Below, piece after piece: positions 44,752-53,629 of a stretch of 61,274 nt of DNA (its first letter is position 1; the number at the start of each line of letters is the position of its first letter). The position numbers and the translations under genes were made by a program. The notes beneath the pieces were generated by a model. That model did no database searches, was not told the origin of the DNA, and worked only from the letters and a program-made list of their open reading frames with translations. The stretch is from Thermoproteota archaeon (GTDB lineage: Archaea; Asgardarchaeota; Jordiarchaeia; Jordiarchaeales; Freyrarchaeaceae): positions 1 through 61,274 of the forward strand of contig JAPDJY010000012.1 in assembly GCA_029258835.1 (NCBI GenBank), read 5' to 3'.

Positions 44752-44951
44752 TCACTGTTCCTTCTGTAAGATTAAAAGCATTTTTAGCAAGGAGAGTGGT
44801 ACATGACTGCTACGTAATATCCTTTTAAAAACTTTTCTTGGCTCGGTTCTGTTGCGTTTATGGGTGTTGGGAGATAAAGTGTTTAGGTTTTTCTGGTGTT
44901 GCGCCTTCGGGAGACATGTTTAAAAATTGTCTTGGCATTATAGGGTATTAT

Positions 44952-45085
44952 ATGTCTGAGGTCGATGGAAAGACGGCGGTGACCCTCCATAAATCGACCT
45001 TGAGAGGGCTGGCGGAGCTTAAGGTTCATCCTGGGCAAGCTATGAAGAGGCCATACTGAAGCTCCTAGAGGTGTATGAGGGGTGG
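44952..45085 (+). pseudogene. Small RHH/antitoxin-like DNA-binding protein, frameshifted
   Basis: MSEVDGKTAVTLHKSTLRGLAELKVHPGQ continues in another frame as SYEEAILKLLEVYE. Confidence 0.5.
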
Positions 45086-46334
45086 GAGCGGTCAAGGTGG
45101 TGAAAGCTGTTTCCATACCTTACCAGCCCTCGGAGGAGGTGATTAAACTACTGAAAGCCTTCAGGAGCATGGTTAACTACTGCGTCCACGTAGGGTTGGA
45201 GAGGGGGGTAAGCTCGAGTAGGCTTACAAGAGAGGTTTATCACAGGCTGATGGAATATGATCATAGCTGGTACGTTCTCTCAGCAGTCGAGGTGGCTACG
45301 GCAATCCTCAAGAATCACAGGAAAGCTAAGAGGAGAAATCCGAATGTTAAGGTTCCTAGAGGCAGAAAGCTCGTGGCTAAGACCGGAAAGCAAGCAGTTA
45401 AAGTAGCCGACGGGGTGTTGGGAATACCCTTAAAGCCTAGACAATACATCTGTATACAGCTCCATAAGAGAGCTAAAAGTCTCCTACGAGAATATGGGGT
45501 TTGCTCGGTAACTCTAACCTTGAAGGCCGTCCACGTAGCATTCTCCAAGACAGTCAGAGTGGAGGAGCCTAGAGGCTGGATAGCGGTAGACGTAAACGAG
45601 GACAACGTTACAGCCGTAAGCTCTGACGGTGAGGTTAAGGTCTTCGACCTCACCAGGTTGAAGGAGGCTGGTTACGGACACTTCGAAAGGAAAAGAAGGC
45701 TCCAACGGAGACACCATAAGGATAGGAGAGTGTTGAGGAAGGCTCTCTCAAAACTATCTGAGAACTATCGCAACAAAGTTTCTACTATGCTCCACCAGAC
45801 TTCTACAGCCATAGTGAAGTGGTGTAAAGAAAGAGGTTACGAACCCATCCATGAAGACATGAAAGGTCTAGGAAGAGCGTGAATAAGAAGTCTAAACGAG
45901 TTAATAGGTTCAACGGAAAGGTTCAAACAGTCTCTAAATGTTCCAAGAAGCTAAAAAGAAGGTTGAACAACTGGTAGTTCAGGAAGTTTCTAAATCAAAT
46001 ATCCTATAAATGCATATGGGAAGGTGTTAAAACCATCGAGAGCAAGCATACTAGAAACTCGTCCTCCACCTGCCCGATATGTGGGTTCAGGCTGAAGATC
46101 AGGCTGAAGAAATACCCGAATGGGCTGGTGGAATGCGGAAAACATGGTTTGATGAACAGGCATGTGGTAGCCTGCTTGAACCTACTCAGATGGGAGGGTG
46201 TGGTTCGCCCTCGACCACTCCTCGAATGTAGCTGTGAAGCGTCCCCTAACGAGGCTCCATTCGGGGCTGATGAGGAAAAGGCGTGGAGCAGAAGAGGAGA
46301 AGCTGCGTCTCCCAAATGCAACACTGAGGGGTAA
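45082..46334 (+). pseudogene. tnpB: TnpB-family RNA-guided nuclease, disrupted
   Basis: RuvC-I IAVDVNEDN, Ruv[11 protein letters not shown], frameshift about 45870, TAG at 45975-77, Zn finger SSTCPICG...ECGKHG, RuvC-III NRHVVACLNL. Confidence 0.88.
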
Positions 46335-46455
46335 CAGGCTCAGCCGTCACCCGCAGACGCAACAGAACCCTTGGCTCATCCTTCCCAAGGAAGCGTTAAA
46401 GGTTCCCAAGTCGTTCTTCTGTTAAACCCCCTTATGGCAAAGCATTTTAAGTTTA

Positions 46456-52058: not shown

Positions 52059-52128
52059 CCCCTCCACATCCGCAACGGTCCTTCAACGGAAAAGGAAAAT
52101 AAGGGCTAAAGGAAAATAAGGGTTTAAG

Positions 52129-52245
52129 TGGCGGGCCCGCAGGGATTCGAACCCTGGACACCCGGCTTACGCCACCTTACAACTTAACCGACGTTTAGGA
52201 GGCCGGTGCCCTCTCAGGCAGTAATCCTGGCTAGGCCACGGGCCC
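52129..52245 (-). tRNA. tRNA-Arg(CCT) with two introns (11 nt D-loop 52213-52223; 28 nt at 37/38 52168-52195)
   Basis: Mature GGGCCCGTGGCCTAGCCAGGATAGGGCACCGGCCTCCTAAGCCGG...GCCA; BHB helices CAGG/CCTG and CTCC/GGCG. Confidence 0.87.
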
Positions 52246-52306
52246 CAAATAAACTATTAAAGTAATATGCTTTTAAAATTTTTTAATTCGCTCATTAAAA
52301 TCAGGG

Positions 52307-52409
52307 TGGTGCGGGCTCCGGGATATGCTCAGGGAGTCAGCACTCCCTATTGAACCCGGGTCACTGGCGTGGCAGGCCAGTGTCCTAGTCCAGGCTAGAC
52401 TAAGCCCGC
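52307..52409 (-). tRNA. tRNA-Gly(GCC) with 25-nt intron at 58/59 (52325-52349)
   Basis: Strict BHB: GTTC/GAGC central helix, AGGGAGT/ACTCCCT intron helix; encoded CCA. Confidence 0.93.
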
Positions 52410-52519
52410 GCCCATTCTTAGATGAGACGAGCATCCTACTTAAATTTTTCTTTTTAAGGTTCTGTTAACTTGTTGCTGGTGAAATTAAAAAATATTGAGT
52501 TTGCGTCCTAGCCCCATTG

Positions 52520-53028
52520 GAGACAAACCTTGTCAATTTGGTTTGATGATAAGCAGCCTCTCTTACCAAGTCTTCCCAACCATTTTTATTTTCAAATCAA
52601 CTTCGCAAGCTTCAGCAGGTATTTTACCTTTCAAGCTCAAATGAGGTCTTAGGAAATTGTAGTAAACAAACCAGCCTCTTAACCAAATCTTAGCAGTTTC
52701 TTCACTTTTAACCTCTTAAAGGTTTTAGCCTATCCTTTAATGTTCTATGAAGTCTTTCAACAACATTATTTGTTTCTCTTACTCTAATTCCGGCTCTTCT
52801 TACGAATTCTACTCTATGTTCTTTATATCCGCTGTAAAAAATTTTCTTTGAAGTTTTTTCATAGGTCCATAAACCATCTACAACTACTCTTTTTGGTCTT
52901 TCAACTGATCTTTCTTTAGCTTGTTTAAACAGCTTGATTACTTCTTCTATTGTTCTTTCTCCAGATAAATGAGTAGTGACCAAAAATTAGGTATCAGCAT
53001 CAATTATTTCCCAGAACCATTTATATTC
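52520..53028 (-). pseudogene. IS6-family DDE transposase remnant
   Basis: KWFWEIID.., VVVDGLWTY, TNNVVERLHRTLKDR, then frameshifted YYNFLRPHLSLKGKIPAE; 5' part missing. Confidence 0.82.
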
Positions 53029-53095
53029 AATTAGCTCTCCAGCTGATTAAAAAAGAAATACCTACATTATGGATGTTATTTCACAGCAAATCAAT

Positions 53096-53629
53096 CTACT
53101 TCTTCTTAAAATTAAGTATATGATCCTTTTGTTCTACTAAAGAATAAAGATTCGTGGCTCCTATAATTTCCAGAACTCTTTCCTTTTTCATACGGAAGCA
53201 ATAGCGTGTAGAGAGATATCCGCTTGGTTTCAAAACTCTATGTAATTCTTTTAGTACAAAATCTTTGTCCTCTATTTCAGGAAGTGCACCATATAACAAG
53301 ATTATGTCTATGCTTTCATCAGGTAAACCTGTATTTCCATCGGATAGAATTGTATATATATTATGAAGCCCTTCTTTTTCAGCCTTTTCTTCAACCTTTT
53401 TTAAAGCTAATGGTTGCTTGTCCAAAGCATAAACTTTTCCTTGTTTGCCTACTAATTTAGCAACAGGAATAGTGTAGGAGCCAATACCACAACCAAAATC
53501 TAAAATTGTTTGTCCTTGCTTTATATCAATTTTTTTAATTTCTTCCTCTGGTTTAAATGGTATGCCAAATCTATCTCTTAATCTCAAAAAGAAATATTCT
53601 AATCTCAACCTAACATTAAAATGTTTCAT
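53096..53629 (-). CDS. Class I SAM-dependent methyltransferase (cargo)
   Basis: ILDFGCGIG, VYALD, ELHRVLKPSG. Confidence 0.9.
   Translation of the reverse strand: MKHFNVRLRLEYFFLRLRDRFGIPFKPEEEIKKIDIKQGQTILDFGCGIGSYTIPVAKLVGKQGKVYALDKQPLALKKVEEKAEKEGLHNIYTILSDGNTGLPDESIDIILLYGALPEIEDKDFVLKELHRVLKPSGYLSTRYCFRMKKERVLEIIGATNLYSLVEQKDHILNFKKK

Follow-up and report, generated by a model that had tools for sequence, protein, structure and literature searches.

The 61,274-nt stretch analysed here (hereafter the window) is contig JAPDJY010000012.1 of a Thermoproteota archaeon that GTDB places in the Asgardarchaeota (Jordiarchaeia), and it belongs to a 2.72-Mb metagenome-assembled genome (MAG; G000) of 91 contigs, in which it is contig C14. 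A genome search also assigned this MAG to the phylum of two closed Atabeyarchaeia genomes, which makes it an Asgard archaeon. At positions 44837-46377 the window carries a compact element in which a small ribbon-helix-helix (RHH)-like gene and a tnpB gene are enclosed by terminal inverted repeats (TIRs) and bordered by an exact 8-bp target-site duplication (TSD). Its features, in window coordinates, are as follows.

44829-44836, plus strand: left-flank motif AAACTTTT, which fits AANNYTTN; a candidate target-adjacent motif (TAM) directly 5' of the TSD
44837-44844, no strand: left TSD copy CTTGGCTC (from the sequence; TSD match 8/8)
44845-44866, plus strand: left TIR GGTTCTGTTGCGTTTATGGGTG (inverted-repeat search)
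44897-44915, plus strand: subterminal TIR-like repeat (TGTTGCGCCTTCGGGAGAC), 84% complementary to the inner right TIR
44919-44926, plus strand: TATA-like box TTTAAAAA, a putative internal promoter; the RHH start codon follows after about 26 nt
44952-45103, plus strand: RHH-like small gene, a pseudogene with a 1-nt deletion in an A run near 45037
45097-46334, plus strand: tnpB pseudogene, ending at the TAA at 46332-46334; 78% identity to intact homologues of 411-434 residues
46087-46110, plus strand: 12-bp tandem duplication (TCAGGCTGAAGA twice) within the tnpB zinc finger
46155-46163, plus strand: RuvC-III codons N-R-H, with His at the position of the canonical TnpB catalytic Asp
46182-46369, plus strand: candidate omegaRNA scaffold, sharing sequence with the 3' end of tnpB and with the right TIR (nhmmer E 5e-32)
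46348-46369, minus strand: right TIR (GGTTCTGTTGCGTCTGCGGGTG on the minus strand; inverted-repeat search)
46370-46377, no strand: right TSD copy CTTGGCTC, which would supply the opening 8 nt of a candidate guide at 46370-46385 (predicted)

The two 22-nt TIR arms are complementary at 19 of 22 positions (86%), and their 12-nt tip GGTTCTGTTGCG is exact on both arms and absent elsewhere in the window, while the 8-mer CTTGGCTC abuts the outer side of each arm. The RHH open reading frame (ORF) overlaps the tnpB start at 45097, and no transposase ORF lies between the TIRs. The tnpB gene, frameshifted by 1 nt near 45870, is read in frame 1 as far as 45882 and continues in frame 3 from 45879, where a TGG-to-TAG change has left an in-frame stop at 45975-45977. 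An earlier, sequence-only reading of this DNA had described the element at 44837-46377, a span that takes in both TSD copies, as an RHH-like gene plus tnpB without a transposase inside 22-bp TIRs and an exact 8-bp duplication, and had regarded the copy as inactivated. All of these points were confirmed: the repeats and the duplication lie where they had been placed, the RHH gene is frameshifted, and tnpB carries a frameshift, a TAG and the 12-bp duplication.

Recurrence in archaea and the encoded proteins

We gathered about 100 loci from whole genomes and metagenomes and scanned each of them for element ends, counting those elements in which GGTTCTG-type TIRs, complementary at a minimum of 16 of 22 positions, tightly bracket tnpB. 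On this basis, 36 non-redundant TIR-bounded tnpB elements were found, which come from metagenomes and from Atabeyarchaeia, Bathyarchaeia and Methanomethylicaceae; the same right end is also seen on partial copies in Nitrososphaerota, and one closed Atabeyarchaeia genome (G008) has about 15 TIR pairs. The 8-mers adjoining the TIRs match at 8/8 positions in 14 elements, at 7/8 in seven and at 6/8 in two, and the TSD sequences all differ (for example, ATCTTCAG, CGATATTC, TATATGAA, TTCTAATC, GGTATTCC and GTTAGCCG). Two forms can be recognized. The short form (1228-1311 bp) lacks the RHH gene and has about 50 bp from the left TIR to the tnpB start, and the long form (1408-1527 bp) has an RHH gene of 42-50 codons between the left TIR and tnpB. 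In the TnpB tree the RHH-bearing elements make up one side of a branch (support 100/99), and the window copy groups with loci L045, L071 and L075. TATA-like boxes are found at the left ends of relatives at a position equivalent to that in the window. We also observed that inner TIR segments recur once or twice in the first 60 bp of the left end (loci L089, L091 and L117, and 44897-44915 in the window), for example as GGTGTTGAGC/GGTGTTGAAC and as CTGGTTGTT twice; these repeats may be extra binding sites for a transposase or for the RHH protein.

The structure could in principle be a chance nesting, that is, an ordinary IS605/IS1341-type tnpB inserted in a miniature element derived from an IS6 insertion sequence (IS). 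IS200/IS605 and IS607 elements normally have neither TIRs nor TSDs (PMC13565253), and an IS6 wreck lies 6 kb away, both of which would agree with such an origin. However, TIRs abut tnpB in all 36 non-redundant relatives across phyla, with independent TSDs; in the short form, the left TIR and the start codon are only about 50 bp apart, too little to accommodate an IS605 left end; TIR bases pair and covary with bases of the upstream scaffold (see below); and the tnpB open frame often extends into the right TIR. No IS605-type ends were identified inside the TIRs of the homologous tnpB copies, and TnpA was present in no examined locus. The sequence-only reading had allowed for relatives with IS605-type ends, or without TIRs and TSDs; what was found is the same TIRs and 8-bp TSDs across archaeal phyla, and because the relatives share them, chance nesting is for practical purposes excluded.

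Intact TnpB homologues of 400-435 residues are common in archaeal metagenomes, being 45-81% identical to a reference homologue (P0006) and up to 78% identical to the N-terminal part of the window TnpB. P0006 matches TIGR01766 above its cut-off and NF040570 with 93.7 bits (cut-off 100), and the precomputed Pfam domains are PF01385 and PF07282. Its AlphaFold model has a confident core (pLDDT 79) and is disordered after residue 372, and the top Foldseek matches of the model are Cas12f and TnpB (E 1e-14 to 1e-12). The RuvC-I Asp and the RuvC-II Glu are present (IAVDVNEDNV and IHEDMKGL in window frame 1), both in columns that are at least 90% conserved. The RuvC-III motif departs from the canonical DRDxN with its catalytic Asp and reads NRH in the window and xRH, with an invariant Arg, throughout the clade. 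The NRH reading had been given correctly before; it represents the conserved state of the clade and not decay. Copies in G008 that have diverged to 78-86% identity have for the most part retained open frames of 412-428 residues, which points to selection on the protein. Disorder is predicted for the C-terminal 60 residues, and in the tails, after about residue 372 of P0006, the homologues translate the same stretch of conserved DNA in different frames. Several tails finish with ...ATEP, ...LPEP or ...QTQQN, each a translated piece of the right TIR, so that these gene calls cross the transposon end.

The intact RHH orthologues (42-50 residues) match DUF7557, VapB_antitox or RHH_1. A small RHH gene directly upstream and an Asp-to-His change in RuvC-III are also the marks of the archaeal 'RIIIr-4' and 'MazE' branches, which the main text of PMC10691335 treats as non-mobile and as probable toxin-antitoxin pairs. 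It may thus be asked whether the window holds an immobile module of this kind, with TnpB as the toxin, its antitoxin being the RHH protein, and mobility of no relevance, and the antitoxin-type families matched by the RHH proteins, weakly as they are, would agree with that. On the other side, there are many independent sites (L045, L047, L075, L082, L083, L085 and L089) at which RHH and tnpB are jointly enclosed by TIRs and flanked by perfect 8-bp TSDs, which does not fit the published description as non-mobile; RHH-less sisters share the same ends, and the RHH-bearing elements are confined to one side of a single branch. We therefore consider an immobile module very unlikely. A toxin-antitoxin-like or regulatory role of the RHH protein inside a mobile element is possible and would not conflict with mobility.

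RNA scaffold and flank motif

For the candidate omegaRNA, the last 240 nt up to the TIR tip were aligned for 17 elements of different lineages. Nucleotide conservation in this region is strong despite the differing reading frames. RNAalifold proposed 21 pairs, for which 93.6% of the alignment cells are paired, as compared with 37-42% when the partners are slid by 1-3 columns. Compensatory changes were observed in 13 of the 21 pairs (2-5 in the slid controls), and the observed covariation score was reached by none of 500 shuffles. In the last helix, upstream bases pair with TIR positions 7-12 and covary with the lineage-specific TIR sequence, leaving the outer AGAACC single-stranded, so that the structure stops 6 nt before the TIR tip. 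This arrangement fits an omegaRNA that would end its scaffold at the transposon boundary and read on into the flank. An omegaRNA reading through the right TIR had been suggested from the window alone; a covarying structure does run through the right TIR, and the guide that would follow it is a prediction. A 733-bp internally deleted derivative was also found (L043:216-948, that is, G008:C1:2135115-2135847), in which most of tnpB is gone while both TIRs and the RNA scaffold in full length are retained (nhmmer E 1e-28); this derivative represents a step towards a miniature element with only the guide RNA.

When the elements are read in the orientation of tnpB, the 8 nt before the left TSD conform to AANNYTTN in the family (AAACTTTT in the window). 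Among the 36 copies, T is present at -3 in 33 and at -2 in 29, and a pyrimidine at -4 in 32. YTT at -4 to -2 occurs in 26/36 left flanks and in only 4/36 mirrored right flanks (Fisher p = 1.9e-7), whereas approximately 6% would be expected from flank composition. At an empty site, the motif would stand directly 5' of the TSD plus right flank, which is the sequence of a read-through guide. Because the motif lies directly 5' of this would-be guide sequence, the geometry is that of a TAM, and AANNYTTN fits a T-rich TnpB TAM with a guide beginning with the TSD. The earlier suggestion of an empty site next to a T-rich TAM is thus borne out with regard to an oriented T-rich motif, its function as a TAM being putative.

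A one-step alternative is that the oriented AANNYTTN reflects the target preference of the transposase, or promoter context, and not a selected TAM. AA..TT-type flanks do occur at one end of two tnpB-less elements, a 4.4-kb DDE transposase element of G008 (AAGGATTA) and the IS6 wreck in the window (AAATTTTT), both described below. Nevertheless, DDE target preferences are usually symmetric, and here the motif is found only upstream of tnpB; two other tnpB-less IS6-like ISs (L148 and L141) do not have it. In tnpB-less IS6-like elements as a whole, with four usable cases only, the picture is mixed. The TSDs show no AT-richness, and the reading of the motif as a TATA box that is being hit was rejected for that reason. 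T-rich 5' motifs are typical of Cas12f nucleases, which are among the structurally nearest enzymes to this TnpB by fold match. Altogether, a target preference is a serious possibility, if not the one that we favor.

IS6-type ends, candidate transposase and decay in the host

The bacterial IS6/IS26 family has the TIR consensus GGTTCTGTTGCAAA, with the size of its TSD as a family character, and the archaeal 'IS6-like' group has longer TIRs, 18 bp or more (Harmer and Hall 2019, PMC6807381). The window ends match this consensus at 11 of 14 positions, the first 11 nt being exact and including GG at positions 1-2 and G at position 7, and the TSD has the 8-bp size of the family. A DDE transposase of its own, which an IS6/IS26 element should have, is not encoded in the window element, and no IS6 DDE gene was found in any of the tnpB loci gathered; since no DDE is present in any of them, the elements are non-autonomous.

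A candidate partner was identified in G008 (C1:614149-618567; L040:550-4968). The TIR of this 4.4-kb element is perfect over 25 bp and the same as in the tnpB elements; its TSD matches at 7/8 positions, and the element encodes a 251-residue IS6-family transposase (P0071; NF033587, 116 bits over the full model; PF13610, 64 bits). No omegaRNA scaffold is present in it. Its cargo comprises an HxlR-like winged helix-turn-helix protein, a DUF5678 protein, an aspartyl-protease-like ORF and a 272-residue ORF without a family; an ORF upstream of the transposase was considered as a split N-terminal SWIM domain and rejected on examination. A longer IS6-type DDE protein (383-399 residues) with an N-terminal SWIM domain and zinc ribbon occurs once per genome in the three Atabeyarchaeia genomes searched (G006, G007 and G008) and in the Asgard genome G309, and these proteins are 65-74% identical to one another (L041:2897-4048 on the minus strand, L042, L036 and L146). 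The SWIM-DDE protein may be a domesticated or an active transposase. Other Asgard and Bathyarchaeia IS6-like ISs have perfect 8-bp TSDs (L148/L161 and L141). Only 9 of 400 Asgard genomes sampled contain an IS6-family match, and all four Asgard genomes with TIR-type tnpB hold IS6 DDE sequence, a co-occurrence that includes the window wreck and carries no statistical weight, as the genomes are kin.

The IS6 sequence in the window itself is decayed:

52458-53173, minus strand: decayed IS6-family IS; DDE with stops and frameshifts, one end GGTTCTGTTAACTTGTTGCTGG, far end uncertain

Within it, the DDE wreck at 52696-53022 (minus strand) matches PF13610 (E 2.4e-11) and contains three stops, and GGTTCTGTTAAC starts at 52458, in agreement with the IS6 remnant with similar ends that had been noted at that position. 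It is the only IS6-family DDE sequence in its genome, which has no intact IS6 gene. The end sequence of the wreck also adjoins a SWIM-IS6 DDE gene in an Atabeyarchaeia genome: in G008, a lone end of this type (GGTTCTGTTAACTTGTTGGGTG) lies 620 bp downstream of the SWIM-DDE gene. Directly beside the wreck there are tRNA-like sequences (52120-52420), and near 52140 one of them, on the minus strand, shows a GGGATTCGAACCC T-arm.

The elements might alternatively be moved by an activity other than IS6, either another transposase family with 8-bp TSDs or one not known, in which case the IS6-like ends would be convergent. That a transposase element with matching TIRs is seen in a single genome could be taken in this sense. 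However, the ends follow the IS6 consensus as given above together with an 8-bp TSD, the sole element with the exact TIR encodes an IS6-family DDE, and among the archaeal IS6-like ISs of the same phylum are some that combine GGTTCTGGT ends with 8-bp TSDs. A non-IS6 mover is accordingly unlikely in our view, and mobilization in trans by an IS6-like DDE appears well supported as the probable mechanism. The sequence-only reading had pictured a TnpB/IS6 hybrid mobilized in trans; the DDE element with an identical TIR in G008 gives this picture a concrete partner, and the mobilization itself is deduced from the shared ends.

With regard to the host, read sets containing the window sequence come from hydrothermal-vent and marine-sediment metagenomes. 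In a metagenome contig of a sister strain (L119), the insertion occupies the identical site and shows the same lesions, except that the 12-bp duplication is missing and one additional 1-nt deletion is present. The duplication is polymorphic in the population, being absent from some read-set contigs too. Because L119 shares both site and lesions, the insertion appears to be old and fixed in the population. Two DNA and two RNA-library runs were compared with the window; both element junctions are bridged by contigs, and in these four runs no empty allele, that is, no joint skipping the element, was seen. Two metatranscriptome libraries of one marine-sediment sample yielded contigs on the tnpB body (at least 95% identity), for which DNA carry-over is possible; they are restricted to 45427-46148 and leave the scaffold uncovered, and one of them lacks the 12-bp duplication.

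The genome contains only two scaffold-bearing copies (C14 and C30) plus fragments at contig ends, and the C30 copy is full of stops. The latter belongs to a second, more decayed RHH-tnpB copy of another subfamily, split over C25:36700-36964 and C30:1-1051 (L004 and L002). Stretches of 127 bp that are identical to the window occur in both the C25 and the C30 contig ends (assembly k-mer breaks), and about 70 bp separate the right end of the C30 copy, ...GTTACCAGAACC, from a tRNA gene with an intron. A DNA search of the window's own GTDB family found no copy beyond this genome. With RHH and tnpB broken, the other copies decayed and the sole IS6 transposase gene wrecked, the system is extinct in this genome, and the window copy is a fossil of no functional consequence.

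Proposed mechanism and comparison with known systems

TnpB is understood as a helper of 'peel-and-paste' elements of the IS605 and IS607 types, which excise without a scar. Its presence on a TSD-making DDE transposon that probably copies itself without excising is a puzzle. On the basis of current results, we consider it probable that a non-autonomous archaeal transposon with IS6-type TIRs has left a dead and fixed copy at 44845-46369, and that this transposon carries an operon of RHH and Asp-to-His TnpB together with a guide-RNA scaffold and was moved in trans with a homing-type drive. In such a system, an IS6-like DDE transposase would recognize the shared GGTTCTGTT... ends, move the element in trans and make the 8-bp staggered cut. 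The omegaRNA would be transcribed through the right TIR, taking the right TSD copy plus flank as its guide (here CTTGGCTCATCCTTCC). TnpB would then recognize the unoccupied site, in which the guide sequence stands directly after a YTTN-type TAM (here AAACTTTT), and cut it, and repair would copy the element in, resulting in a homing-type drive for a duplicating, non-excising transposon. The occupied site would be spared, since there the TIR follows the left TSD and ...CAGAACC, which is no TAM, precedes the right TSD.

The most specific form of this proposal is that the 8-bp duplication made by the IS6-like DDE serves as the first 8 nt of the TnpB guide and that the insertion site is tied to the TAM. 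We put it forward tentatively and regard it as rather doubtful at present. The tie could arise in two ways: only TAM-adjacent and correctly oriented insertions would drive themselves into empty alleles, or TAM-bound TnpB would help to place the transposase. If true, a prokaryotic RNA-guided drive would exist for a replicative, non-excising DDE transposon, using a His-containing RuvC site, tuned by an RHH protein and with a geometry unlike that of IS605 and Fanzor.

Several points weigh against the proposed mechanism. Transposition, RNA and cleavage are all predicted from sequence. A matching TSD is absent in 13 of the 36 elements, a fraction that fits replicative or recombinational rearrangement as in IS26 and is at most an indirect hint of cointegrate formation. 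His replaces the catalytic Asp, and nuclease activity is thus a prediction. When 46178-46369 is folded as a single sequence, its stability does not exceed that of shuffles (z -0.52). The left-flank motif could be a transposase target preference, given the similar one-end flanks in the 4.4-kb element and the IS6 wreck. Finally, a transposase-bearing element with matching TIRs is present in one genome only (G008): no matching-TIR IS6 was found in five further genomes with tnpB elements (four Bathyarchaeia and one Methanomethylicaceae, all incomplete MAGs), four of which had no IS6 match and one an IS6 with different ends (GATACTGTTAAG). Even so, beyond its fossil in the window, the family is a widespread archaeal case with many intact copies, for example at G006:C1:2274599-2275890, a candidate transposase, an RNA scaffold and a predicted TAM and guide, so that the role of TnpB can be tested.

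It is known already that TnpB occurs on DDE transposons and that solo copies appear to be moved in trans. The main text of Altae-Tran et al. (2023, PNAS, PMC10691335) describes DDE-associated TnpB branches (DDE-1 to DDE-6) along with solo TnpBs that have the same ends, and a 2026 review (PMC13565253) lists ISL2, IS630 and IS1031 as partner families and considers prokaryotic pairings rare. As far as they are described there, the DDE-1 to DDE-6 TnpBs resemble our elements in having inverted terminal repeats around tnpB, with the tnpB 3' end near the transposon end, and in that solo copies share ends with a transposase-bearing element, implying mobilization in trans. Our elements differ in that tnpB and the transposase never share an element, each TSD is an 8-mer of variable sequence and the partner is of the IS6 type. 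No paper linking TnpB with IS6-type ends was found in the literature, PMC10691335 being covered by its main text. From the IS6/IS26 family, whose ends likewise begin with GGTTCTGTTGC and whose TSD is also 8 bp, with long TIRs as in the archaeal group, the elements are set apart by the lack of an internal transposase gene and by an OMEGA module as cargo.

The IS1341 group of IS200/IS605 is similar in being non-autonomous, with tnpB only and a 3' omegaRNA reading into the flank, whereas IS605 has subterminal hairpins and a Y1 TnpA and neither TIRs nor TSDs, both of which the window element has. Fanzor on eukaryotic DDE transposons is also a TnpB homologue on elements with TIRs and TSDs, with an RNA that overlaps the right end, and there the 5' TSD lies in the TAM and the 3' TSD in the scaffold (PMC13565253). 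In the present family, by contrast, the TSD varies, conservation is found in a motif upstream of it, and the 3' TSD would serve as guide. With the RHH/MazE-TnpBs, likened here through their published main-text description, the elements share the RHH gene directly upstream, the RuvC-III His, an archaeal and patchy distribution and a long conserved 3' region, while differing in that TIRs and TSDs enclose them at numerous independent sites and that they have RHH-less sisters. What is new, therefore, is the combination of IS6-type ends with TnpB and the occurrence of RHH-linked Asp-to-His TnpBs as transposon cargo, and at least for this clade the reading of such TnpBs shifts from immobile modules of toxin-antitoxin type to cargo of transposons.

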